This document shows, in pieces, positions 5,058-50,363 of a stretch of DNA of 64,000 bases (positions are counted from its first letter, which is position 1; every line of letters begins with the position of its first letter). Location of the stretch: IMG/VR virus record IMGVR_UViG_3300045118_000047, positions 6,779 to 70,778 of that record; one strand, written 5' to 3'. Below the pieces are notes generated by a model. The model was not told where the DNA came from. It was given only the letters and a program-made list of their open reading frames with translations, and did no database searches. The position numbers were made by a program, and so were the translations under genes. Origin of the DNA: a virus.

Positions 5058-8000
5058 ATGGCAAGGTCAAAAAAAGCATCTGGTGAACATTTTGACGGCG
5101 GCGTCAAGCGTCCCGGCGTTCAAACGGGTCCTGCGGACCCGGTACGGGCAAGGATTGCTCGCAGGGCGGTGGGGGCAGGCGGATTTGGGTTCGGCGGACA
5201 TGGGCGTGAGCGTGAAGCTGGAATGCTGATCGATACGTCTCAGGTTGCCGCTCCATACGCTACGGGATACAAGCTGGAAGCCTACCGGACTTCGTATGCT
5301 TACGGCCTGAGTGACCGCACAGGAGCTTACGACATCCCGACCTATTTCGTGATGATGAACGAGCAGAACGGCGGGATGATCTACTGGCCCGTCACACTGC
5401 ATGAGAAGTATTCGTGGTATCGGTACTGGGCGCGGTCGGATGCCTATATCGGCAGGGCTTTGGAGTTGCTGTCAGACCTGCCGATGTCGAAGCTCACCTT
5501 GAATATGCCCAAGATGCCCAAGGGCAAGAAGGGATTAGCTCAGGAGATTTTGGACTTCTTCAACTATCAGCTTGAAGTTATCAATGCCTTTGAGCTGTGC
5601 CAGAGCATTCTCTGGGAGTCCAACATGATCGGCAACTGCTTCAAGGGCGACACGATGATTGTTACATCGAAGGGTGTGTTGCCTATAGCGGAAGTCCGTG
5701 TTGGAGATGCTGTCCTTGATGCTTCTGGAAATTTTTCCAAGGTGACAAATATCGCCAGAAGGAGCGTGCAGGAAAGGCTGGTGTCGTTGCGGATTGCAAA
5801 GATGGCCGGTGTGGAGTTTATGCCTACAGCCGAACATCCTGTTTTTCTTCTCAAGGAAAACAGCAGAGAAGAAATGGTGAAGGCGGGTGATGTTCGTCGT
5901 GGAGATTGGATCGGAGTAGGAGCTACGGGAGAATCACGGGATGTGGATGTTGTTCCTTGGAAGGACGATCTTCTGGATCGGTATTTGCCGTCATTCTATA
6001 CAAAGATCGAAAAGGCGGTTCGAGGATCGCAGGTTGATATTCGGTGTGGATATGATGTCCCGACCGGATTGAGCGTGGATGCTGAAAACCTTCGAGATGC
6101 TATCTTGGCGTGGATTTCCGAATTGAAGGAGCCTACGACGGCTGATTGTTCGGAAGTTGCTAAAGCTATTGGCGTGGCTGATGCAGAACGAGTCAGATCG
6201 ATTGCCTATGCCATGCGAAAGAATGGAGAGATTAGGACCGAAAGGACCAGTAAGGGTGGGGTTGGAGGAAGCTCGCTGATTTGGTATCCGGGAGTATTTT
6301 CTGTGCCAACTGGTCATATTCGTAATATGGAGACCGTTTTTTCTCCTGTGGCAAGTCCGTCTATCTCTGTAGATGAGGACTTCTTATATCTTCTTGGTTA
6401 TTGGATGGGAGACGGATGGCTGTGGAAATCCAAGAACAAATATGCCAAAGAGTTCGAGGGATGGGACATTTGCGTATCTTCCAAGGCTGTTGATCTTTTC
6501 CTTCGTGTAGATGCGGCGGCAAGAAGTGTTTTTGGAGAGGACGCGGTTGATAATGAGCCGTTTATAGACGGTGATATGTCGCATGTGGTGGTTCGAGACC
6601 CACTTTTGGCGGCATGGTGGAACACCCAGTTTGGCAACGACTGTGAAAGCAAGAAGATTCCCGACTGGATTATGTCCTTGCCTGTGGAAAAAGCTATCTG
6701 GGTTTTGAGAGGAATGATTGATAGTGATGGGTATGTGACTAAGACAGAATCGGGTGGTTGTCAGGCAGGCATGGTTGGGACGAATAAGGCTTTGATGCTT
6801 CAGTTGTTCCACTTGTCTCTGCGTTGTGGCATCCCTGCTTCCTTTGGGAAAACGGATAAGCGTAGTGGTCAACTTCCAAACGGTCAACGGATAGAAACTC
6901 GTGAGGTTTATACCGTATCTGTTGGCGTTAGGGATTACTATGAAATGCTGGTTGACGGATGTTCTAAGGCTCAAAAGGCTGATTGGTCTTCAGAAGAATC
7001 GGTCAATATCGCCTTCAAAGAAGTAGATGGTCGTTTCTATTATAGGGTTGATGGCGTAGATCGTCCGTTCCATTCTGGTTTCGTTTACAATTTCGAGGTT
7101 GATGGAAGTCACACCTATTGTGCAAACGGAGTACGCACGCACAACTGCTACATCTTCCACGAGTGGGACGAGAAGAAGAAGATGTGGTCCAGAGCGGTCA
7201 TGCTTCCGCCGGAAGAAGTGTACGTTTTCCAATACCCATTCACGGATAACAAACGGGTGGAATACCGACCGCAGCGTTTGATTCAGCTCATCAAGAGTGC
7301 CGGGGATGCGGAAGCCAGCGAAGTTCCAAGGGGAGACTATGACCGCTCGGACATGAATCGAAAGATTGTTGAAGGAGTCCCCAAGGAGCTAAGGACAATG
7401 GTGCAGAGGGAAGGTTGTATCGTCATGGATACAGACCCGATGACGGGTTCGTTTGTGCATCATATTGCCCGCAGGCGGTCGCCGTACATGGATATTGGAG
7501 CTTCCGTGTTGGAGCGCGTATTGGTGCCGATGCTTCAGAAAGAGCATTACCGGTATACCCAGTTGAGCTTGGCTAGTCGCAATATGACGCCGAAGAACTT
7601 GATTTCGGCACCGGGTCTGATGCCGGAAGAGTTGGATGATTTGCGGACGCAGGTGGACCTGTCCTACATGGACCCGGAGTATTCGGTTATCACCAACTAT
7701 GAAATCCACTGGGAGCAGATTGGTCCCCAAGAGCGTTTCCTTGATTTCGGACGTGAATACGAACAGATCGAGAATCAGGTTTTCGCCGCGATGGGCGTGA
7801 CGCGAGAGCTTTTGACGGGAGAAGGTCAGTTCTCAGGGACCAAGATCACCGTCGAAATTCTAAACACGATGTTCCTGCTGACTCGCGAAGTTCTGAAGAA
7901 CTACATCGAGAAGCAGCTCTTCATCCCAATCTGCGAAGCCCACGGCTGGTATGAAGAAGACAAGAACGGGGTCAAGAAATACTACTGTCCGCAGATTGGC

Positions 8001-8513
8001 TTCAACCGCTTAACGATTCGCGACAATGCGGAAGTGTTTGATTCTCTGTTCCAGCTTTACCAGAAGGGCAGCTTGCCGGTGGACGTGATCTACGAGTTGT
8101 TCAACTTGAACCCCGAAGAGATGCACGCCAAGTTGTTGGAAGATGCTTTTACGGTCAAGGACGCGACCTTCAACCGACTGTTGGAAGAAGTCAACACGGA
8201 AGTTGGCAGGGCCATTCCGCAACAGACAGATGCCGTCGAGAAGGTGTCGAAGTATCTTGGTTTGAAGTTGGTCGGCAAGTCCGAAGAACAGGGTGGAGAC
8301 GGTATGGGCGGCGACTTCCAAGAAGGTATGGACGAACAGCAAGGCCAGCAAGAACAGCAGGGTCAGCAAGAACAGCAGGGTCAGGAGCAAGGCCAAGAAG
8401 GAGACCCTGAATCTATTGCCAAGACTGTTGCTGAAAAACTACCGGCGGATGCGTCTCCAGAAGACATCAAGGATGCCGTGGAAGAAGCATCAGAGGCAGG
8501 AGAGAAAGCATGA
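5058..8513 (+). CDS. portal protein with intein
   Basis: Position after terL; portal-like segments (DAYIGRALELLSDLPMS, LKNYIEKQLFIPIC); acidic and Q-rich C-terminus. Confidence 0.8.
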   Translation: MARSKKASGEHFDGGVKRPGVQTGPADPVRARIARRAVGAGGFGFGGHGREREAGMLIDTSQVAAPYATGYKLEAYRTSYAYGLSDRTGAYDIPTYFVMMNEQNGGMIYWPVTLHEKYSWYRYWARSDAYIGRALELLSDLPMSKLTLNMPKMPKGKKGLAQEILDFFNYQLEVINAFELCQSILWESNMIGNCFKGDTMIVTSKGVLPIAEVRVGDAVLDASGNFSKVTNIARRSVQERLVSLRIAKMAGVEFMPTAEHPVFLLKENSREEMVKAGDVRRGDWIGVGATGESRDVDVVPWKDDLLDRYLPSFYTKIEKAVRGSQVDIRCGYDVPTGLSVDAENLRDAILAWISELKEPTTADCSEVAKAIGVADAERVRSIAYAMRKNGEIRTERTSKGGVGGSSLIWYPGVFSVPTGHIRNMETVFSPVASPSISVDEDFLYLLGYWMGDGWLWKSKNKYAKEFEGWDICVSSKAVDLFLRVDAAARSVFGEDAVDNEPFIDGDMSHVVVRDPLLAAWWNTQFGNDCESKKIPDWIMSLPVEKAIWVLRGMIDSDGYVTKTESGGCQAGMVGTNKALMLQLFHLSLRCGIPASFGKTDKRSGQLPNGQRIETREVYTVSVGVRDYYEMLVDGCSKAQKADWSSEESVNIAFKEVDGRFYYRVDGVDRPFHSGFVYNFEVDGSHTYCANGVRTHNCYIFHEWDEKKKMWSRAVMLPPEEVYVFQYPFTDNKRVEYRPQRLIQLIKSAGDAEASEVPRGDYDRSDMNRKIVEGVPKELRTMVQREGCIVMDTDPMTGSFVHHIARRRSPYMDIGASVLERVLVPMLQKEHYRYTQLSLASRNMTPKNLISAPGLMPEELDDLRTQVDLSYMDPEYSVITNYEIHWEQIGPQERFLDFGREYEQIENQVFAAMGVTRELLTGEGQFSGTKITVEILNTMFLLTREVLKNYIEKQLFIPICEAHGWYEEDKNGVKKYYCPQIGFNRLTIRDNAEVFDSLFQLYQKGSLPVDVIYELFNLNPEEMHAKLLEDAFTVKDATFNRLLEEVNTEVGRAIPQQTDAVEKVSKYLGLKLVGKSEEQGGDGMGGDFQEGMDEQQGQQEQQGQQEQQGQEQGQEGDPESIAKTVAEKLPADASPEDIKDAVEEASEAGEKA
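5637..7145 (+). mobile_element. intein with LAGLIDADG endonuclease in portal (503 aa)
   Basis: Starts CFKGDTMIV, block B TAEHPV, LLGYWMGDG and LRGMIDSDG, ends VYNFEV...THN|C. Confidence 0.92.
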
Positions 8514-20625: not shown

Positions 20626-22740
20626 ATGGAACGCAGATGCACATCTGATGCTTGTCTCGCACACGCGGGCGCGAAGTCGGTCTCGTTGGACCTTCCGGTT
20701 GCGACCGTGCTGATGAATCCGCGCCAAGAGTGGGGCCGTTTGGCTTTTGGGGACGGACGGGTGCGAGTTGCGCGTGACATCAATGTGGACTGGAAATCGT
20801 ATACCCCGGATAACTATCTGTTTTCACACTGCACCATTGTCGCATCCGTTGCCACAGAAGACAATGGTTACTCTATTGTTCCGGCCTGCTCCGATTTGGT
20901 GAATAACAACGGCAATGCTTGGACCAATGAAGTATTGCTGGCGACGTTTAGAACCTTTGTTGGCGGAGAGAACTATCTTGAACACGTGCAGGTCCCGGAG
21001 CTGTCGAAGGGCAAGATTCTGGATGCTGTGCTTCGTCCGTTGACCTATCAGGACAAGGAAGGTCGGACGGCGGACATCTACTACTGCTTTACAGGGGATG
21101 CCAAAGTGTTGATGGGAGACGGGACAGAGAAGGACATTCAAGATGTTGTGGCTGGTGATCTTGTATTTTCTGGAGATGGTAATGTTCAGGAAGTTCTCGC
21201 CGTTTCGAGAAAGTATGCTTCCGACATTGTCAGAATGAAGATTCGTGGTGATTTAGATGTTGTCGGATGCACTACTGGGCATCGTATTTGGGCGAAAGAG
21301 AATATCGAAGACGAATGGGAGATCGTAGAGGCGGGATCAGTGGGAAAGGATTGGTGGGTTTTTCAACCTAAGCCAATCTGTCGTGGCGATATTGAAATCA
21401 GTAAGGACATGGCGTGGTTGGTTGGATTTTACGCTGCTGAAGGTTCTATCGTCGAGAGGGCGGATAAGGATGGGATCAGGCATCCCAAGGTAACACAGTT
21501 CACCTGTCACCAAGACGAAGAGGCGGTCGTTCGACTGGCTATAGATATAGTCTTGAGTGAGATTGGACCATACAAGGTTCCATTTTTCACTCAGAGATAC
21601 TCTGGTGAAAAGTTGATGAGGGGTATTAGAGGAAGTGTTGATAGTCGAAAGACTTCCGAGTTCGGAGTCAATATACGGGTCGGACACGAGACTCTTGCCG
21701 AGATCATGGTCTCTCTTTGTGGCAGGGGATCGACAACCAAGAAGTTTCATCCAGACATTCTGACGGGATGGAATGATGAGGCGAAGTTGGGTTTTCTGGC
21801 GGGCTTGATCGATGGGGATGGATATGCAAGGAGAGATGTGGTTGGATTCAAGTCTTCCAGTAACGACATGGTGAGGGGTGTCGAGTTTTTGCTGGCATCT
21901 CTTGGCATGGCATATTCAACCACGGGAGACTGGCATAGTGGACCGTATAGCGGGTGTGCGGTCGTAGAACTCGATTGTCAGTCGAGTGATCGTCTTCGGA
22001 CTTATCTGCGAATCAAGAACACCTTTGATGTGTGGTCTGGTGAATTGGGGTTGAACAACAGAGCATCGATTGCGTGTGTGGGCGGGATCGCTCGCAGAGT
22101 TGCTTCTGTAGAGAAAGTTGCAGATACGGTTGAGGTTCCAGTTTACAACATCGAAGTTGCTTCGGATCACAGCTATATCGTTTCTGGAATCAAGGTGAAA
22201 AATTGCGACATCTTGGTTGCTACAAACCGGAAGTATAAGCGACTGGTGGGCAAGATCGCTTCGGGTGAACTCACAACGATGAGCATGGGTTGTTTGGCAG
22301 ACTGGGTAACTTGCTCTCGCTGTGGGGTAGTGCTTGGTGACAATCAGCCGAACTGTCACCACTTGGACAACGAACTACTGGCTCATTTCAGGGACAAGAA
22401 GGGCGTCGAGCGGGTTGTGGCTGAGTTGTGTGGCCGTTCGATTATGAAGGGCGGCAAGCGAGTAGGCGACGGCAAGAGCGTGCGCTTCATAGAAGCGTCA
22501 TGGGTTGAGAAACCGGCGTTCTATGGCGCGGTTTTGAATCACTACGTGAGCGAGATGCCGGTGGAAGCGGCAAGGATTCTTGAGTTCCCGACAGATCGGC
22601 TACAGCTTGCCGTGGAAGACATCTTCAAGCTGCGTGTGGCTGACAAGGCGGGAATGATGGTGTTGCGAGTGGCGCAGGCTGAAATCGCCCGTCGGATGGC
22701 TTTTGAGCGTGTGGGGAGAATCGCAAGGAGATTGATATGA
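20626..22740 (+). CDS. prohead (capsid maturation) protease with intein
   Basis: NNNGNAW, ENYLEH, KGKILDA, TTMSMGC...CSRCG...CHHL, FIEASWVEKPAF; upstream of scaffold and capsid genes. Confidence 0.78.
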   Translation: MERRCTSDACLAHAGAKSVSLDLPVATVLMNPRQEWGRLAFGDGRVRVARDINVDWKSYTPDNYLFSHCTIVASVATEDNGYSIVPACSDLVNNNGNAWTNEVLLATFRTFVGGENYLEHVQVPELSKGKILDAVLRPLTYQDKEGRTADIYYCFTGDAKVLMGDGTEKDIQDVVAGDLVFSGDGNVQEVLAVSRKYASDIVRMKIRGDLDVVGCTTGHRIWAKENIEDEWEIVEAGSVGKDWWVFQPKPICRGDIEISKDMAWLVGFYAAEGSIVERADKDGIRHPKVTQFTCHQDEEAVVRLAIDIVLSEIGPYKVPFFTQRYSGEKLMRGIRGSVDSRKTSEFGVNIRVGHETLAEIMVSLCGRGSTTKKFHPDILTGWNDEAKLGFLAGLIDGDGYARRDVVGFKSSSNDMVRGVEFLLASLGMAYSTTGDWHSGPYSGCAVVELDCQSSDRLRTYLRIKNTFDVWSGELGLNNRASIACVGGIARRVASVEKVADTVEVPVYNIEVASDHSYIVSGIKVKNCDILVATNRKYKRLVGKIASGELTTMSMGCLADWVTCSRCGVVLGDNQPNCHHLDNELLAHFRDKKGVERVVAELCGRSIMKGGKRVGDGKSVRFIEASWVEKPAFYGAVLNHYVSEMPVEAARILEFPTDRLQLAVEDIFKLRVADKAGMMVLRVAQAEIARRMAFERVGRIARRLI
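21085..22203 (+). mobile_element. intein with LAGLIDADG endonuclease in the prohead protease (373 aa)
   Basis: Starts CFTGDAKVLM, TTGHRIW, LVGFYAAEG and FLAGLIDGDG, VYNIEVASDHSY, ends KVKN|C. Confidence 0.9.
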
Positions 22741-43929: not shown

Positions 43930-44451
43930 ATGAGTCAAACAAGACAGCAGCGGAAGCAGCAGCAAAAGCGCGTCAATCGCCAGAAGAAGATCAGAAAGCT
44001 CCACAACATCCAGCGCAACTTGGCCGAGCAAAGATTTCGTCTGGATGTCGAGCTGAATGGAGAGTGGCGGATTGGGGTCAAGCATTGGCGTCACATCAGC
44101 TTGATCGAGAAGCACCGTGACGAAACGGAGCGGCTGCGCAGGGCTGGTCAGGAGATTGTTGCCGGTCGGGTGGTGGACCTGATGACCGGAAAGATTATCT
44201 TGAAGATCGAAGCATCGAAGCCGAAGGGCGCGGCTCCTGATAAGATCGCGGATGGCGTTCGGGCGGCGGATTTCAGCGCGAACATCGGAGAAGGCGAAGG
44301 TCAGCAAGTTGGAAGCAAGGGACCTGAGCCGGTAAACTCGGAAGAACAGCAGAGCCAAGGACCTGCCGGGATCGTGGAGTCGGAGCAGAAGCCGGAAGGT
44401 CCGAAGGGGCCAGTGCAAAAGTTCTTCCGTATTCTGGGTGGTCGTCGGTAA
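43930..44451 (+). CDS. basic protein with Arg/Gln/Lys-rich N-terminus, putative RNA-binding
   Basis: MSQTRQQRKQQQKRVNRQKKIRK; the only convincing ORF inside the RNA island. Confidence 0.6.
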   Translation: MSQTRQQRKQQQKRVNRQKKIRKLHNIQRNLAEQRFRLDVELNGEWRIGVKHWRHISLIEKHRDETERLRRAGQEIVAGRVVDLMTGKIILKIEASKPKGAAPDKIADGVRAADFSANIGEGEGQQVGSKGPEPVNSEEQQSQGPAGIVESEQKPEGPKGPVQKFFRILGGRR

Positions 44452-44453
44452 TG
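44427..44453 (+). promoter_or_regulatory. CCGTAT-N15-GTAATG promoter
   Basis: One mismatch to the motif; upstream of RNA B. Confidence 0.6.
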
Positions 44454-44557
44454 TGGTTTTGACCGGGCGATGTGAAAAGCAAGCCGAGTCATTCCCTTAG
44501 CGGGGAAGAAGACAGGGGAAGCGTAGCGTCGGAGAGTGGGTTAGCGCCCATCCCGGT

Positions 44558-44569
44558 TGTTCTTTGAAA
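44558..44569 (+). promoter_or_regulatory. boxA-like antitermination element
   Basis: TGTTCTTTGAAA directly before RNA B. Confidence 0.65.
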
Positions 44570-44570
44570 T

Positions 44571-44854
44571 GAAAAGTCTGTAAAGTAGCTCGTCCATCCG
44601 ACTGACGACGTGTCGGACAGCGGGTGAAAATCAGGAACGGAAAGAAAGCCGTTCACGGTAGGCCGGAGTGGTAACACGCTTCGGCGGACATCCTGCCGTC
44701 AATAGTAGGATGCTGCTGCTCCCGTCCGAAAGGATCAGGAGAGACACGGGGCTGACATCGGGTAACACCTAGATGGCACAGGCTCGTAGGCCAAGACGGA
44801 ATACCGAAAGGTATGCCTGCCCGATGAAAGAAAGGACAGACCGACAGACTTTTC
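44571..44854 (+). ncRNA. unassigned structured RNA B
   Basis: 11-bp closing helix GAAAAGTCTGT/ACAGACTTTTC; GAAA and GTAACA-capped hairpins; no + strand ORF. Confidence 0.7.
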
Positions 44855-44855
44855 T

Positions 44856-44882
44856 CCATATCGCCGGAGACATCTGGTAATG
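44856..44882 (+). promoter_or_regulatory. CCATAT-N15-GTAATG promoter
   Basis: Exact motif upstream of the GAC-mimic RNA. Confidence 0.75.
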
Positions 44883-44888
44883 TGGGTG

Positions 44889-44900
44889 TGTTCTTTGACA
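44889..44900 (+). promoter_or_regulatory. boxA-like element
   Basis: TGTTCTTTGACA. Confidence 0.7.
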
Positions 44901-45305
44901 GAATAGGCAGGGGAATGTTGGCTTAGAAGCAGCCAGATAGAAATATCAGTTTTCTCTTGCTGGCGTGATTGCCATAGAATACAAGGGGGAACTCATCTAA
45001 GGAGTGAATCGCTGAGCATTGCTCCGTGAGTGTCATGGGGAAACCTGACTACTCGGAGTAACGCAATAGGGATTGGGCAGGCCGGACGGAACCGGATGTC
45101 TGGACATACGTTGGGTGAAAACCCAACTAGCACCCTTCTCGCAAGGAAGGAGAGGACGCCAGAGTGTACTGCCCTATTGTGCGGCAAAGGAGGTTGCGGC
45201 TCCCGTGTGGGTGAATAGTCTTTCGTGTGGTAGAAGCATAACCCGCAAGGCCATACTCAATCGCATGGTGGATTCTTTGGCGTAATAGCACACCTTTGCT
45301 TGTTC
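44901..45305 (+). ncRNA. structured RNA containing a split 23S rRNA GTPase-associated-centre (H43/H44, uL11-binding) domain
   Basis: 13-bp closing helix; blocks ATGTTGGCTTAGAAGCAGCCA, CATCTAAGGAGTG and GCGTAATAGCACAC in rRNA order. Confidence 0.8.
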
Positions 45306-45308
45306 TGT

Positions 45309-45320
45309 TGTTCTTTGACA
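45309..45320 (+). promoter_or_regulatory. boxA-like element
   Basis: TGTTCTTTGACA. Confidence 0.7.
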
Positions 45321-45325
45321 TTTTG

Positions 45326-45792
45326 ACTGGCAGCGGTACGGCACTAGGAACGTACTTGCGCATTAAAGTCCCAGTGCGCGACAATAGCCACGGTAGGGTT
45401 AGAAGCCCGATGTGGTCGCCGTTGAAAACAACGGCAGCGTGAGTCTGAGACCGTAAAGACGGTGAGTTCAACGCGAACCTGACGAGCTTCGTCTGCCTTT
45501 CCAGACTACGGTCATATACATGCCCCCGCAAAGGAGCTAACGGGGTCCCGTAAAGGACGCCGGGACGATGGCCGCAAGTGGGAAGGAGAAACAGACGAGT
45601 GGCGGGGAGAGTGGCGACAAGGCATTCCTTCAGGCTGGGCGCATTAAAAATTCCGTGGGCACGGATATATGCCTTGGGCAAAAATTGTTTCTGCTGTTTG
45701 ATCCCGAAACGTAGAAGCAGTCAGTAGTGGCGAGCGAACACTGTGGAGAATCGGGGTAGGCAAGTGTGTCGGTGAGAATCCGGCCTGCCAGT
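45326..45792 (+). ncRNA. unassigned structured RNA C with a 23S H13-like module
   Basis: Closing helix ACTGGCAG/CTGCCAGT; CAGT-C-AGTAGTGGCGAGCGAA-C-ACTG at 45718-45743. Confidence 0.7.
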
Positions 45793-45874
45793 TTTCGTCC
45801 AGATGATGTGACTTGCGGCGCACAAGGGTCCTGTGGTAGAGTGTTCTGGACCATTGCACCGTAAACTTTTTGAT

Positions 45875-45951
45875 CGCGGGAGGGAAGGCCGTGGTGGTCT
45901 CGTGGGGTTCATAACCCTATAAGTCGGGTTCGAGTCCCGGTCCCGCTACCA
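45875..45951 (+). tRNA. tRNA-Met(CAT), initiator-like with atypical D arm
   Basis: Acceptor CGCGGGA/TCCCGCT-A-CCA, anticodon arm TGGGG-TTCATAA-CCCTA, T loop TTCGAGT. Confidence 0.85.
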
Positions 45952-46081
45952 ATTTGAAGATGCGTTCGCCTGTCGCACGGGCCTGTGATGGGTCGTCAAA
46001 CAAGGCATGTCGAGCGTGAGACATGTCATCAGTGAATGGGGAAGGCGCATCTCGCAGAAGACGTGGAGCAGGAAATCGATT

Positions 46082-46462
46082 ACCGGCAAACCTGCTCTTC
46101 GTAATGCGGCAAGGCGGTTCTAAGCCCGCCTGTGGGCAAGCGTACTGTTGGGCCGGAAGGCAGGCATGTCGTCGGAACTCAGCAGATGGTAGAATAGGCC
46201 GCTAATAGCTCACGAAGGTTCGGTCAACGCCACGACGAAGGCGCTAGTCATAAGGTTGGCGGTAGCCGGGCTGCTTGGATGGTGGAGTCGGCGGTGGAAA
46301 CATCGCCCCCAAAAGAACCGCTTGCGGGAACCCTGAGCCGCAGTGATCTGTGGCTGGCTCTGAAGGGCTGCGGGAATGAACCTACCGCTACTACGCGCAG
46401 CGAAAGCTGCTAGGGACTTGTCGGCCCAAATGAACCAACCGGCAAGGGTCGGGTTTGCTGGT
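46082..46462 (+). ncRNA. unassigned structured RNA D
   Basis: 13-bp closing helix ACCGGCAAACCTG/CGGGTTTGCTGGT; nested TTGGGCCG/CGGCCCAA and GGCGGTAG/CTACCGCT helices; GNRA hairpins. Confidence 0.6.
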
Positions 46463-46509
46463 CTGGCTGTGAAATCTTCGCCCGGATGGAGCCAGACCAG
46501 CAACAATTT

Positions 46510-46536
46510 CCATATTGATGACAGACTGTGGTAATG
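46510..46536 (+). promoter_or_regulatory. CCATAT-N15-GTAATG promoter
   Basis: Exact motif upstream of the tmRNA. Confidence 0.75.
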
Positions 46537-46620
46537 TGGTCGCATGAACGGATAGATGGGCATCGGTATTCCGTTCATTGAAGCGGGTTGCCTAGCCGCC
46601 GAAAGGTAGGAGCGATGTCT

Positions 46621-46632
46621 TGTTCTTTGACA
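46621..46632 (+). promoter_or_regulatory. boxA-like element
   Basis: TGTTCTTTGACA, one base before the tmRNA 5' end. Confidence 0.7.
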
Positions 46633-46633
46633 T

Positions 46634-47465
46634 GGGCGCGATACGGTTTCGACGGGTGAAGTTGAAATCGAGCGACACGCCGAGTAATGTCTGGTTGGAC
46701 TCGTTAATCTATCCCAGACGACAACACAAACGCCAAGAGAACTCTTGGTAAGGTGATTCGCGGTGTCTTCGGTGCTGCTGATGAAGCGGTGCCGATGCTC
46801 GCGGCTGCGTAAGCAGCCCACCGTCACGGTGTAAGACTACGTGAACCGCCGTGGCTCAAAGCACGTGGTTGACAGCTTGGAAAGACAGCGATACCGGAGC
46901 TGGTCATTCCGGGGAAGGATGGACCAAAGTTGCCGGTTGACAACCGGATAGACCAAGCCCGTGGTCGAGAATATCGGGCGAAGCGTGTGTATGTTCGGCG
47001 TAGACTCATTCGGACGGGAGTTCAATCCAAAGGTTGCCTTGCTTGGCGACAAGCAAGGAAAAGAGTGCTCAAACGGTGAACGCTAAATCCGTAAGGATAT
47101 GCCAACGCCGTCGAGTGGGCTGGAAACAGCGAAGCTCGCTAGAGACTTATAGGCACCTTCAACCAAAGCTGGTTATGGTGTACTAGGATGGAAGAATCTT
47201 TCTCGAATCTGAGTTTGGCTTCGCGCATGGCGGCGGTGTATTTCCCGTTCCGTGGAGTAACCTTGTGGTAAACATGGGCGAGAAGGAACGCCGAGTCAGG
47301 AAGATCGTTCCTTCGCCATCGATGATGCCGGTCAGATAACCGAGATCGAATTTTTTCATAAATGCACTCCTTCTGGATGTAGGTTATACCTACAGCATGT
47401 CCAGAAGAAGGAATAGTCCAGACCATTACGAAAGTAAAGGATAATCTGTCTCCCCGCGTCCACCA
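46634..47465 (+). ncRNA. ssrA: tmRNA interrupted by a group I intron; exons 46634-47026 and 47449-47465
   Basis: 5' GGGCGCGATACGGTTTCGAC; acceptor GGGCGCG/CGCGTCC-ACCA with G3:U; tag ORF 46732-46812 AKRTLGKVIRGVFGAADEAVPMLAAA*; spliced T arm GGGAG-TTCAATT-CTCCC. Confidence 0.92.
47027..47448 (+). mobile_element. group I intron (422 nt) in the tmRNA T loop; no endonuclease ORF
   Basis: P1 CAAT/GTTG with U:G at the splice site; R-like TAGAGACTTA and S-like AAGGAATAGTCC; terminal G. Confidence 0.88.
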
Positions 47466-47487
47466 ATTTCAAGGTCACGAAAAATAG

Positions 47488-47517
47488 TTGCAAACAATTT
47501 CGTGGCGTGAGTATAGT
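47488..47517 (+). promoter_or_regulatory. sigma70-like promoter TTGCAA-N18-TATAGT
   Basis: Near-consensus hexamers upstream of RNA E and a tRNA. Confidence 0.55.
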
Positions 47518-47563
47518 GTAGTGAAAGTGAACGAAGTCAGGCTCACTTCAGTTCTGGGTTACT

Positions 47564-47829
47564 TCATAAAGCAACCAGAAGTCTCCGGCGGCGACAAGGA
47601 TCGCCGTTAGTAGGAGAATGACGGCCTGCAAAGACAGGATGGAGTTCAGGGAAGACTGGATGGCAGCATGGGAAGACATGCAAATGGCAGCTCGGAAAGA
47701 CGGCTTTCCCGGAGCGCATATCGGAGCTTGATGTAGTTCTGTGAGTGTTGAAGTATGGCACGCTTCAGTTTGGGGTTACTTCTGCCTTTCATAGAAATAC
47801 CCCAGACGGTCATCGGTGTCGGCTTTTGA
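47564..47829 (+). ncRNA. unassigned structured RNA E with four tandem NNAAGA-loop hairpins
   Basis: CCTG-CAAAGA-CAGG, TTCAG-GGAAGA-CTGGA, GCATG-GGAAGA-CATGC, GCTCG-GAAAGA-CGGC with ATGG(C)A linkers. Confidence 0.55.
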
Positions 47830-47830
47830 T

Positions 47831-47907
47831 TGCGGGGTGGAGCAGCCCGGTAGCTCGGCTGGCTCATAACCAGCAGGTCGTTGGTTCAAATCCAACTCCC
47901 GCAACCA
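47831..47907 (+). tRNA. tRNA-Met(CAT) with fMet-like body
   Basis: TGCGGGGTGGAGCAGCCCGGTAGCTCG...CTCATAA...GGTTCAAATCC...CGCAACCA. Confidence 0.92.
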
Positions 47908-47910
47908 CAG

Positions 47911-47947
47911 AAGGCCGGACGCCGAAAGGTGCCCGGCTTTTTGTTTT
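47911..47947 (+). terminator. intrinsic terminator
   Basis: GCCGG..GCC-GAAA-GGT..CCGGC hairpin plus T-tract. Confidence 0.75.
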
Positions 47948-47961
47948 GAGAAAGGAGTCGT

Positions 47962-48609
47962 ATGAAGCCAGTTTTGAAGCCGAACATTATGGTCTCACAG
48001 GACGAAGTAGACTTGGTAATCGGAGAGCTTGACCGGGTACTCAGGCTGGGCCTGCCGGGAGACGTGGTAGAGTTCGGGTGTAATGTGGGGAATACGTCGG
48101 TGTTCTTACAGGATGCGTTGCAGCGGAATGGAAGCCAGAAAAAGCTGGTGTGCATTGACTCGTTTCAGGGGTTCCCGGAGACGGAGTCGATTGACGAAGA
48201 CTGCTTCAAGAAGGGTGGTCTGGCAGTACAGCAGGCAGAGCTGCTGGGTCATTTCGACGAGTTTCAGCTTCCGCATCCCGTGGTCGTACAGTCGTGGATC
48301 GAAGAGCTTCGAGCGAAGGATTTGCCGGATGAGATTTGCTTCGCGTTTGTAGACTGTGACATCTACAAACCGGCAAAGTGGGCATTCGGATTGGCGTGGA
48401 TCAGGATGCCGGTAGGCGGGTCGGTTGTGTTTCACGACATCTGGGCGAAGGGAATCCAGCGGGCGATCTGGGAAGGTCGTCAAGGGATGTCGCGGGAAGA
48501 GATTGCATGTTGTCACAGGTCGTACATTGTCAGGAAGGTGGATTCGGTGCCCGTGGTGGGCAAAATTGGCGGCGATAATGCCGCACTTCAGGAAGGGGTG
48601 AGACAGTGA
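47962..48609 (+). CDS. TylF/MycF-family O-methyltransferase
   Basis: PGDVVEFGC..G, DSFQGFP, FAFVDCDIY, VVFHD. Confidence 0.85.
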   Translation: MKPVLKPNIMVSQDEVDLVIGELDRVLRLGLPGDVVEFGCNVGNTSVFLQDALQRNGSQKKLVCIDSFQGFPETESIDEDCFKKGGLAVQQAELLGHFDEFQLPHPVVVQSWIEELRAKDLPDEICFAFVDCDIYKPAKWAFGLAWIRMPVGGSVVFHDIWAKGIQRAIWEGRQGMSREEIACCHRSYIVRKVDSVPVVGKIGGDNAALQEGVRQ

Positions 48610-50363
48610 GTACGTTCAAGACGGTAGCACGGCAGAAGTCGGCGGCTGCATTGCAGCCGAGTCATGCTCCGAACGCATCGGTCAACCGGGCGGGCGGAGT
48701 GGCATTCGAGATTAGCGATCCATCACTGAAGCTCCTGACCATGACAGGCGGGGCTTTCTTTGCGGAGCCGAAGTTCTACAACGGCGACCAGTGTGTGCCG
48801 AAGCGTGGAACGGGCGGCAAGTTTGAAAAGCTGGCCGAGCGTCTGGAGATCGTGGGTGACAAGCTGAAGGGCGTTGTGTCTTGCGATGAGCTGGACGAGA
48901 CGGCTCGCGAAGTTGTGGCGACGGCTCTGGATGTGGCACGGGGCAATAACCCGGAAGACATTCTGGCGATTGCTAATTGGCTGCGTAACGAGATGAACAT
49001 CCGGCTGACGCCGCAGGTGTTGCTGGTGCTCGCTTCGCGGATGGACAACACGAAGTCTCTGGTGCGCAAGTACGCTCCGTGCATCGTGAAGCGCCCGGAC
49101 GAAGTGAAGAGCTGCCTGTTGATTCACCGGTTCTTCTTTGGGTTGAAGGACCTAAAGAACGGTCTGGCCAACGGTCTAGCCGACGCGCTGGGGAAGTTCG
49201 GGGAGCGGGGACTGATGAAGTACGACGATCCGGGATTCCCGACGTGGAAGGATGTGCTGTGCTGGCTGCCGCGTAAGGCGGGCTGGCCGCTGAAGGCGGA
49301 AGTGGCGCAGTATTTCATCACCGGGAAGATTGGTGATCCGGCGAAGGTTCCGGTCATCGCGGCCCGCAAGGAGCTGGTGAAGTGCAAGGCGTTTGACGCC
49401 GAAGCTCGCAAGCTGGCCCGTGCGTCAATGGTGAACTGGGAAGTTCTGCTTTCGCAGTTTGGCAACGACAAGCAGGCGGTCTGGGAGTTCTTGGTTCAGG
49501 AAGACTTGCTGGGTTACATGGCTATGCTGCGTAACCTTCGCAACATTCTGGAAGCCAAGGCTGGCCGGACGGTCATTCAGAAGGTGTCGGACAAGCTGTC
49601 CAACCACGATGAAGTCGTGAAGTCGAAGCAGCTCCCGTTCCGGTTCCTGTCGGCGCTGAAGGCGCTGGAGGGGATGCAGGGCGAGTTCGATCAGGCCGAC
49701 GTGTCTGAGCTGATGGCGGCTGTGGAGCTGGCTTCCAACGAAGCCTGTGCCAACATCCCGGTTCTGCCGGGGACAACAGTCATCTTCGCGGATGTGTCGC
49801 AGTCGATGCGCCGTAACAGGGTGTCGGACAAGTCAGAAGTCAACTGCGCGGATGCGGCAACGGTGCTGTGTGGTATCGTGGCCAAGGTCGCTGAGCGCCC
49901 GTATGTCGTGGCGTTCGGTTCGGATGTGGCTCCGGTGTTGTTCTCGAAGAACGACACGGTGCTGCGGATCGCCAAGCGGACGCTGGATGCGGACACTAAG
50001 GGGTGCTCAACCAACGGGCACAAGTGCGTGGAGTGGCTGATCCAGAAGAAGCTGGTGCCGGATCGTGTGGTCTTCCTGTCTGACATGCAGATGTGGAATG
50101 ACAACGATTCCAACGACGATCAGATTTGTCTTTCCGACGTGTGGGACAAGTACCTGAAGTCGGCGGCTGGCGCGAAGAATACGTGGGCGCACTGCGTCCA
50201 TGTCAACGGCTACGGCGACAACGTCGTCGAAGGGGACCGGATAAACATGGTTGCCGGGTTCTCGGAGAAGGTCGTGACGATGATGCTTCAGACGGAAGGC
50301 GTCATTGGCGGAAAGGCTCTGCCGACAGTGGAGCAGGTCCGTGAGAAGTGGACCGTGAAGTAA
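48606..50363 (+). CDS. TROVE-domain (Ro60-like) RNA-binding protein with vWA domain
   Basis: N.AGG.AF, RPDE, MAMLRNLRN, SKQLPFRFLSA, vWA DVSQSM and FLSDMQ, GFSEKV. Confidence 0.9.
   Translation: MSTFKTVARQKSAAALQPSHAPNASVNRAGGVAFEISDPSLKLLTMTGGAFFAEPKFYNGDQCVPKRGTGGKFEKLAERLEIVGDKLKGVVSCDELDETAREVVATALDVARGNNPEDILAIANWLRNEMNIRLTPQVLLVLASRMDNTKSLVRKYAPCIVKRPDEVKSCLLIHRFFFGLKDLKNGLANGLADALGKFGERGLMKYDDPGFPTWKDVLCWLPRKAGWPLKAEVAQYFITGKIGDPAKVPVIAARKELVKCKAFDAEARKLARASMVNWEVLLSQFGNDKQAVWEFLVQEDLLGYMAMLRNLRNILEAKAGRTVIQKVSDKLSNHDEVVKSKQLPFRFLSALKALEGMQGEFDQADVSELMAAVELASNEACANIPVLPGTTVIFADVSQSMRRNRVSDKSEVNCADAATVLCGIVAKVAERPYVVAFGSDVAPVLFSKNDTVLRIAKRTLDADTKGCSTNGHKCVEWLIQKKLVPDRVVFLSDMQMWNDNDSNDDQICLSDVWDKYLKSAAGAKNTWAHCVHVNGYGDNVVEGDRINMVAGFSEKVVTMMLQTEGVIGGKALPTVEQVREKWTVK

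Follow-up and report, generated by a model that had tools for sequence, protein, structure and literature searches.

A free-standing phage RNA that copies the ribosomal GTPase-associated centre and may act as a decoy for its ligands

The DNA analysed here, called the window throughout, is a 64,000-nucleotide (nt) stretch of a lake-water phage (positions 6,779 to 70,778 of IMG/VR record IMGVR_UViG_3300045118_000047; the source record is 70.8 kb long and ~43% complete). On its + strand, at 44901-45305, lies a 405-base RNA gene with three blocks that resemble 23S ribosomal RNA (rRNA) and follow one another in 23S order. An earlier note, made from the sequence alone, had taken this unit for a rebuilt GTPase-associated centre (GAC), the part of 23S rRNA that comprises helices H42-H44 and the 58-nt uL11/thiostrepton domain (E. 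coli 1051-1108). The unit lies within a 3.5-kb stretch poor in open reading frames (ORFs; 44450-47960), together with two tRNA-Met-like genes, a twister-P5 ribozyme and a transfer-messenger RNA (tmRNA). The same window DNA turned up in several lake-water DNA runs; no RNA run was among those listed with it. The coordinates of the features are given in Table 1.

Table 1. Features of the GAC-like unit and of its surroundings in the window (23S numbering of E. coli).
Feature	Position	Strand	Remarks
Promoter-like motif TTYCCRTAT-N15-TGGTAATGTGG, with extended -10-like TGnTAATGT	44850-44885	+	Three copies in the RNA region; putative function
boxA-like motif TGTTCTTTGACA	44889-44900	+	Directly 5' of the unit; identity presumed from resemblance
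Closing stem, 5' strand (H42 equivalent) GAATAGGCAGGGG	44901-44913	+	Pairs with 45293-45305
Block 1 ATGTTGGCTTAGAAGCAGCCA, H43 equivalent, 23S 1057-1077, with A1067 loop and U1060	44915-44935	+	Exact 21-mer in true 23S copies
Insertion 1, at the 1077/1078 equivalent	44936-44992 (end 44992/3)	+	Two hairpins, the first with a GAAA loop; z = -4.3
1078-1090 equivalents	44993-45005	+	H43 3' strand (U, CAU), junction CUAAG (1082-1086), GAGU (1087-1090, A1088)
Block 2 CATCTAAGGAGTG	44994-45006	+	Matches 1079-1091 at 9/13 positions (own count)
Insertion 2, at the 1090/1091 equivalent	45006-45275	+	270 nt, closed by GAATC/GATTC; family-wide insertion site
Family-specific linker UUUG (TTTG in DNA)	45276-45279	+	UUUG in 103/106 units, a count partly forced by the search pattern (loci L044 onward)
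Block 3 GCGTAATAGCACAC, H44 upper stem, A1095 loop and 3' strand	45280-45293	+	1091-1104 equivalents, A at 1101
Closing stem, 3' strand (H42 equivalent) CCTTTGCTTGTTC	45293-45305	+	Hand reading and minimum free energy fold
Second boxA-like motif	45309-45320	+	Start of the next RNA unit
tRNA-Met (CAU)	45875-45951		ARAGORN; Rfam tRNA 27.6 vs 29 bits gathering score; unusual D-arm region
Twister-P5 ribozyme	46053-46129		Rfam 38.0 vs 37.6 bits gathering score
tmRNA	46642-47029		Rfam 58.3 bits, not called by ARAGORN; preceded by a boxA-like motif at 46621
Methyltransferase gene	47962-48609		Downstream of the RNA stretch; absent at this place in relatives
Ro60/TROVE gene	48606-50363		Downstream of the RNA stretch

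The 405-nt unit, its closing stem and its blocks were all found where the earlier note had placed them. All 13 of the 13 pairs in the closing stem GAATAGGCAGGGG/CCTTTGCTTGTTC are standard, four of them G-U, and the same stem is predicted by the minimum free energy (MFE) fold, closing the element on itself by an H42 equivalent made of its own 5' and 3' ends. Block 1 and E. coli 23S 1057-1077 have the same sequence, and block 3 equals 23S 1091-1104 apart from U1101A. The references for these comparisons were E. coli 1050-1109 as printed in an excerpt of PMC1802607, the true 23S copy L036 and four host 23S copies, and the 23S sequence given in the earlier note was checked against them. The A1067 and A1095 loops, and the equivalents of U1060 and A1088, are all present in the window unit. 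In addition, the CAU of the H43 3' strand pairs with the AUG at 44915-44917 and closes H43, as had been claimed, and C44997 and G45001 form the equivalent of the 1082:1086 pair.

The window has a single copy of the block 1 21-mer, and 0 of 100 dinucleotide shuffles contained it at ≤3 mismatches. For the whole unit, the folding z score was -3.99 and 0 of 100 shuffles were equally stable, the MFE structure including the closing stem and the H43 hairpin. In the window, and in the covariation described below, H43 with the 1067 loop and H44 with the 1095 loop follow each other in order within the H42 closure. The strands of H43 and H44 are not uninterrupted: insertions stand at 1090/1091 and, in the window, also at 1077/1078.

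Relatives of the unit were retrieved with two short patterns, the exact H43 21-mer and then a family-specific 3' block. The exact 21-mer was present in 43 IMG/VR contigs, one of which (L036) is true 23S rRNA and one of which is cut by the contig end. The remaining contigs continue with UCAU, N-UAA-N, GAGU, a variable stretch, YUUUG-GCGUARUAGC-ACAC and a strand complementary to the bases 5' of the 21-mer. The 3' block pattern matched at least 117 IMG/VR contigs. When it was applied to one genome per species, 28 matches were obtained on bacterial contigs or contigs of metagenome-assembled genomes, 18 of them with both blocks; these 18 loci sit among tRNA genes, and an Rfam scan gave large-subunit (LSU) rRNA matches near 0 of the 18. 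The other 10 matches are without the H43 block, and the three that were inspected (L165, L175 and L177) are chance matches inside coding sequence. A blastn search of the whole RNA region against phages returned tRNA-Met matches only, because the conserved blocks are short, and queries with the H43 half found cultured phages.

Six cultured phages have the element in full, namely Cronobacter GAP32, Pectobacterium CBB, Pseudomonas pf16 and Astolliot, Aeromonas 4_4572, and Xanthomonas XacN1. The 5' half also gave uninspected matches in Serratia BF, six Erwinia pEa_SNUABM phages, Kaldavass, XaC1, XbC2, UNO-G1W1 and Milchi, and the BLAST matches of cultured phages to the 5' half fall in unannotated gaps. 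Paenibacillus phage Pd_22F and several short 'phage' records turned out to hold true 23S rRNA and were removed. The carrier records range from ~23 kb to 410 kb, at least 90% complete in 24 of the 41 examined, and the carriers infect hosts from Proteobacteria, Firmicutes, Bacteroidota and candidate phyla. In Flintibacter muris and a Clostridiaceae isolate, the prophage copies are unlike the 23S GAC of the host itself. Because derived features are common to phages of unrelated hosts, and because these prophage copies differ from the host GAC, the family looks like a single old phage gene lineage rather than the outcome of repeated capture. The family is apparently undescribed and common in phage tRNA arrays, including those of some cultured phages.

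Covariation was examined in 106 distinct units (105 and the window), from which two units with an indel in the 21-mer, one without a recognisable junction and the true rRNA loci were left out. The positions at which covariation was scored were fixed by neither search pattern. The H42 equivalent is paired over 8-9 positions, each with four to six pair types. The 1057:1081 pair is AU in 96 units and CG in 8, and the 1058:1080 pair is UA in 58, GC in 26, AU in 16 and CG in 2. The 1082:1086 pair is standard in 101/106 units (UA 54, CG 30, AU 17, with five exceptions). The C-G pair of the window, which had been described as the swap typical of the eukaryotic junction, is one of these three covarying states and is also the archaeal Rfam consensus, and the eukaryotic label was dropped. 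The three blocks are conserved and the helices covary across the 106 units.

In addition, a structure hand-written from the rRNA model and the insertion stem was applied to a reference-based alignment of 31 units with short insertions. Paired cells amounted to 93.5%, compared with 71.2% after shuffling (0/500 reached the observed value) and 33-48% when the partners were slid. Changes on both sides were seen in 18 of the 25 pairs.

The tertiary-contact nucleotides U1060, A1088, G1071 and C1072 are each conserved in sequence in 106/106 units, invariance within 1057-1077 being informative only in the loci found with the second pattern and that within 1091-1104 only in those found with the first. 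We take G1071/C1072 to form the base triples with 1091-1092/1099-1100. Position 1061 is U in 80 units, A in 17 and G in 9; U1061A is the substitution that stabilises the tertiary structure of the model RNA, according to an excerpt of PMC1802607. A1067 is kept in 97/106 units and replaced by G, U or C in 9, A1095 is kept in 105/106, and 1096 and 1097 vary. Owing to A1101, the U1090-A1101 pair is standard in 103/106 units.

The insertion between the equivalents of U1090 and G1091 is at least 20 nt long in 104/106 units and interrupts the 5' strand of H44. The earlier suggestion that both insertions sit at bulged positions fails for insertion 2 on this account. The insertion at this site has a median length of 131 nt (range 0-365), some copies measuring 25-54 nt, and has a covarying closing stem of its own, with standard pairs at the first three positions in 104/104, 103/104 and 96/104 units, respectively. 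The insertion sequences fall into many unrelated groups. A CCCC-N3-8-GGUAAGG module was found in 29 of the 104 insertions, 10-12 nt (11 in 26/29) from the 3' end; the window is without it. A second insertion, at 1077/1078, is present in ~10/91 units, the window included.

For insertion 1 of the window, the reading as two hairpins held (Table 1). It is absent from the units of the two closest relatives, L264 and L265, and is therefore a recent addition in the lineage of the window. Insertion 2, the length and closing sequences of which also held, had no blastn relative in the collected family. Its relatives were found via the Ro60 gene and clade-specific patterns, which yielded two complete copies and a partial one. 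Long blocks of it are kept in L264, L265 and L274, and the closing stem shows a compensatory change from A-U to G-C in L264. RNAalifold, run on three near-identical sequences, gave a structure for insertion 2 that conflicts with the family-level closing stem.

A bare core without insertion occurs in three contigs from AT-rich prophages (L016, L030 at 1990-2055, and L034), with a length of 58-65 nt. These copies show a close likeness to clostridial 23S rRNA, also beyond the core, and have a divergent primase/helicase-like gene on one side and a small membrane-protein ORF on the other. They may have been captured recently and separately, or may act in cis ahead of the ORF.

No LSU rRNA model (RF02541, RF02540) reached the gathering score in the window, in 20 viral loci or in 18 genome loci. 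The window copy gave no LSU-model match at all with Infernal at E up to 10. For the pf16 copy, a local match to the archaeal LSU model at 1180-1233 was obtained (20.2 bits against a cut-off of 50, E = 3e-4), confined to the GAC. Likewise, no Rfam 15 family matched the element at gathering score in the window, viral or genome loci, and none matched the unit at E up to 10; the models of GOLLD, ROOL, OLE, raiA and HEARO were among those without a match to the unit or its relatives. In open-licence PMC and bioRxiv full texts (main texts), no phage GAC-like RNA was found described, in line with the novelty that had been claimed for the unit.

The large family, the covariation in every variable helix and at 1082:1086, the invariant tertiary-contact nucleotides and the absence of flanking rRNA in 38 loci strongly support the view that the element is a selected, free-standing mimic of the GAC and not rRNA debris. 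This was also the reading of the earlier note.

The element lies in a consistent genomic setting. Genes for tRNA or tmRNA were found within 1-2 kb flanks in 34 of 60 loci, on the same strand in 34/34 and often abutting; a tmRNA adjoins the element in the window, L009, L108 and L170. The flanks share no recurrent protein family; the 'ORFs' that do recur are spurious and run across the RNA itself. Of 41 carrier records, 0 encode uL11, and a uL11 partner would thus have to come from the host. With no uL11 gene in the carriers, and with the element standing among same-strand tRNA genes, the setting does not fit a ribosomal-protein leader. In XacN1, the copy (L275, AP018399 ~150.2-150.6 kb) lies directly 3' of an annotated 2'-5' RNA ligase gene. 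The pf16 copy (KU873925, ~29.33-29.66 kb) is flanked by tRNA-Asn and tRNA-Pro. tRNAs with a CUA anticodon, which ARAGORN calls 'tRNA-Pyl' and which would read UAG, stand beside the element at L004:3495-3570 and L083:704-792. They fit a link to UAG decoding, a link to which we attach little weight with two cases.

Upstream of the unit, the earlier note had proposed a promoter of its own at 44856. A scan with the sigma-70 consensus called no canonical promoter before the unit, that at 44856 included, and no + strand terminators, so the units may be cut from longer transcripts. What stands of the proposal is a motif, TTYCCRTAT-N15-YGGTAATGTGG, that the RNA region contains three times (at 44446, 44875 and 46529). 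The motif proposed as a boxA at 44889, TGTTCTTTGACA, occurs four times in the window (44558 with one mismatch, 44889, 45309 and 46621), solely on the + strand and solely in the RNA region, and it is conserved 5' of the GAC-like unit and 5' of the tmRNA in L264 and L265. One bacterium has a copy with one mismatch in its rrn spacer. By this copy and by its resemblance to the consensus, the motif is a putative NusB/NusE boxA. The TTGACA inside the motif was considered as a -35 box and rejected, there being no -10 at the right spacing.

Two relatives, found via Ro60 (68% identity), show the same order of boxA-like motif, GAC-like unit, tmRNA and Ro60. The search for this link to Ro60 covered the lineage of the window, and the link was found there. 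The region 47479-47946, which includes a 'tRNA-Met' at 47831-47904, is conserved directly 5' of Ro60/TROVE in four related contigs and is probably a Y-RNA-like Ro60 partner with a tRNA-like domain. A direct repeat of 33 nt with 82% identity (47533-47565 and 47750-47782) lies inside this putative Y-RNA-like region. A 38-nt piece of the twister-P5 region (46101-46138) is 95% identical in L265, and the window phage also encodes a CCA-adding enzyme. Elsewhere in the window, a portal-like ORF (5058-8513, 1151 aa) and a protease-like ORF (20626-22740, 704 aa) contain matches of ~100-130 residues to the anaerobic ribonucleotide reductase PHROG; these stretches may be inserted domains or inteins. The terminase ORF is very long (1049 aa).

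The 3.5-kb region holds a second 23S-like module, AGTAGTGGCGAGCGAA, at 45714-45750, with the core AGUAGYGGCGAGCGAA at 45723-45738 and flanked by CAGU/ACUG. It has a 20-nt exact match to a 23S rRNA at ~E. coli 243-260 (E = 3.6e-5). The 16-mer of the module was found in 38 IMG/VR loci, of which, sorted by eye, ~8 are true rRNA, ~8-10 are chance coding matches and ~15-18 are stand-alone hairpins with covarying flanking stems on large phage contigs. The module was present in 0 of the 40 other GAC carriers searched. Conversely, the H43 loop pattern with 2 mismatches was present in 2 of 15 carriers of the second module, both uninspected, and a reversed-pattern control was equally frequent. The idea that the whole 3.5-kb region is scrambled rRNA was rejected: short 23S matches numbered 64, compared with 51 for the reversed sequence and 32-45 for shuffled ones, and, beyond the GAC, this one 20-nt match alone stands above the controls.

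How such a mimic would work can be outlined from these observations. The product would be a stable structured RNA whose core folds like the GAC, with an H42 of ~9-13 bp, H43, the junction and H44. It is probably co-transcribed with the neighbouring tRNA and tmRNA genes, and the processing that frees these neighbours probably defines its ends as well. Because its own ends close H42, the core could not be built into a ribosome. The RNA would be a trans-acting decoy for whatever molecules recognise the GAC, and the variable insertions would behave as expansion segments on the ligand-free faces. Host uL11 would be the first candidate, since uL11 recognises the tertiary fold of the GAC. This recognition tolerates compensated changes at 1082:1086; uL11 also belongs to the exchangeable ribosomal proteins, and its loss leads to a relaxed phenotype. 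Phages favour exchangeable ribosomal proteins, according to Mizuno et al. (PMC6375957). In an excerpt of PMC1802607, the L11 C-terminal domain is reported to bind the 58-nt domain and to stabilise its fold, and L11 is described with a role in EF-G GTPase activity and RF1 termination. Loss of uL11 from ribosomes would blunt the activation of RelA and RF1-dependent termination. From the sequence comparisons, we put the probability that the RNA is a decoy in trans for GAC ligands, host uL11 first among them, at roughly 0.55.

Several points weigh against this decoy reading. The L11 C-terminal-domain interface comprises 1058-1060, 1062-1065, 1075-1083 and 1088 (excerpt of PMC1802607). Insertion 1 of the window, at 1077/1078, lies inside the 1075-1083 part of that interface, which weakens the case for uL11 for this copy. 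The insertion might project from the side that uL11 does not touch; otherwise, the conserved ligand would be something other than uL11. Factors, thiopeptides, Tre23 and the L11 N-terminal domain bind at the A1067 and A1095 loops, and the L11 C-terminal domain does not. Among the unpaired parts of the family, these loops are conserved best, which a factor or a toxin as ligand fits equally well, and both insertion sites avoid them, which fits equally well a ligand reading the cleft, be it a factor, a toxin or the L11 N-terminal domain. Stripping uL11 from ribosomes would require the decoy at roughly ribosome-like abundance. The near-universal insertion (≥20 nt in 104/106) is left unexplained by simple titration of uL11. 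Finally, each search pattern fixed one block, so the invariance of that block is partly forced in the loci that the pattern retrieved.

A broader view can be sketched tentatively, and we hold it to be something short of probable: phages of many bacterial phyla would carry functional centres of the host ribosome as free-standing RNA copies, acting in trans on translation or on its attackers, with the GAC mimic as the first and commonest. In this case, the GAC mimic would form a small particle with host uL11, perhaps also with factors or with the elbow of tRNA or tmRNA. During infection, the particle would shut off uL11-dependent signalling (RelA, RF1) or soak up GAC-directed toxins. The family of stand-alone hairpins that copy a second piece of 23S rRNA suggests that the principle of copied ribosome pieces may be general.

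The strongest competitor to a uL11 decoy, which we nevertheless regard as rather unlikely, is a decoy for agents that attack the GAC. The RNA would offer the A1067/A1095 cleft to ADP-ribosyltransferases of the Tre23 type, thiopeptides or undiscovered defence effectors, and the ribosomes on which the phage depends would be spared. This would suit the conservation of the two loops and the placing of both insertion sites away from them, the position of the element in phage tRNA arrays, and the genes for RNA repair or quality control nearby (2'-5' RNA ligase in XacN1; Ro60 and the CCA-adding enzyme in the window). Phage tRNA arrays have been read as spares against tRNA-directed nucleases. However, we know of no anti-phage defence directed at the GAC, and none was found in the literature search. 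Moreover, the element has no linked toxin or immunity gene, the flanks are without a recurrent protein family, and A1067, one of the bases on offer, is replaced in 9/106 units. Tre23 ADP-ribosylates H44 at ~1095-1098 and blocks the GTPase activity of EF-G, but the portion of PMC8661411 that reports this presents it as an interbacterial effector of the type VI secretion system and not as a phage defence.

It is quite unlikely, in our estimate, that the GAC fold is a mere scaffold (compact, protein-protected and nuclease-resistant, like tRNA scaffolds) and that the lineage-variable insertion does the work. The presence of an insertion of at least 20 nt at one constant site in 104/106 units, with a median of 131 nt, would be expected of such a scaffold, as would the many unrelated sequence groups, the CCCC-N3-8-GGUAAGG module common to 29/104 insertions and the long blocks of the 270-nt insertion of the window that are kept in relatives. 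A scaffold would have no need for the factor-binding loops, yet these are conserved where the search pattern left them free; some insertions measure merely 25-54 nt, and three contigs hold the bare 58-nt core.

We consider it improbable that the insertion is an intervening sequence, removed by RNase III at the closing stem or by splicing to leave a minimal or two-piece GAC RNA. An invariant U stands directly 5' of the insertion, the insertion has G as its last base (UUUG in 103/106), its closing stem covaries, the core after its removal has exactly the rRNA length, and minimal forms occur. However, group I and group II intron models gave no match to the insertion of the window at E up to 10 (Intron_gpI included), and many insertions, at 25-54 nt, are far below the size of self-splicing introns. 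As a proposal on maturation, it could hold alongside any of the functional readings.

That the unit is rRNA debris, a real 23S piece or assembly contamination would account for the high rRNA identity over 21 nt, and true 23S is indeed held by some 'phage' records (Paenibacillus Pd_22F and several short ones), but this is refuted by the lack of LSU context at gathering score in the window, 20 viral and 18 genome loci, by flanks that pair together and covary, by derived features (UUUG, A1101 and the insertion site) common to phages of unrelated hosts, and by the recurrence of the window DNA in several lake-water runs.

If the RNA is a decoy for GAC ligands, phages would manipulate translation via copied pieces of ribosomal RNA, besides tRNAs, tmRNA and ribosomal proteins. 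They would have a new handle on the stalk base, which activates translational GTPases and the stringent factor, and the RNA would be a candidate natural inhibitor or decoy and a new entry among counter-defences. The family would account for conserved gaps in the tRNA arrays of GAP32, CBB, XacN1 and pf16, now annotated as empty or as hypothetical ORFs. It also supplies more than 100 natural variants of a classic model of RNA folding and RNA-protein recognition, with the changes that are tolerated and the sites that accept large insertions in the GAC. Non-pathogenic hosts, such as Pseudomonas putida with phage pf16, offer a tractable system.

Compared with the GAC of 23S rRNA, the phage element has the same order of elements, the same helices and the same A1067 and A1095 loop sequences, and shares U1060/A1088, G1071/C1072 and the covarying 1082:1086 pair. 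It differs in being free-standing and self-closed, in standing in phage tRNA arrays with no other rRNA, and in adding the 1090/1091 insertion with UUUG, A1101 and, in some copies, the 1077/1078 insertion. In the mitochondria of Plasmodium, the GAC is likewise a separate small RNA (as given in part of PMC3382252). Such organellar pieces join the ribosome by pairing with other fragments, whereas the phage H42 is closed on itself and leaves no strand free for the body of the 23S rRNA.

The leaders of the L10, L1, S15 and L20 operons mimic rRNA, and they and the phage element alike copy the site of a ribosomal protein outside the ribosome. Leaders of this kind, surveyed in PMC3616713 and PMC7247131 (excerpts of both), are cis-regulatory and loose mimics on the mRNA of the bound protein, whereas the phage element is a near-exact copy of a whole domain and adjoins no ribosomal-protein gene. 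The Y RNAs that go with Ro60, such as YrlA with its tRNA-like domain (excerpt of PMC4201824), and the phage decoy RNA pseudo-ToxI (excerpt of PMC3475682) are non-coding RNAs that copy the shape of a cellular RNA, as the phage element does, and the window phage also has a Ro60 gene. They copy a tRNA or an antitoxin RNA, whereas the phage element copies a functional centre of rRNA. GOLLD and ROOL are likewise large structured phage RNAs near tRNAs, but hold no copy of an rRNA domain.

Overall, none of these closest known systems is a phage-encoded, self-closed and near-exact copy of a ribosomal functional centre, and we regard the GAC-like RNA as a new kind of element.

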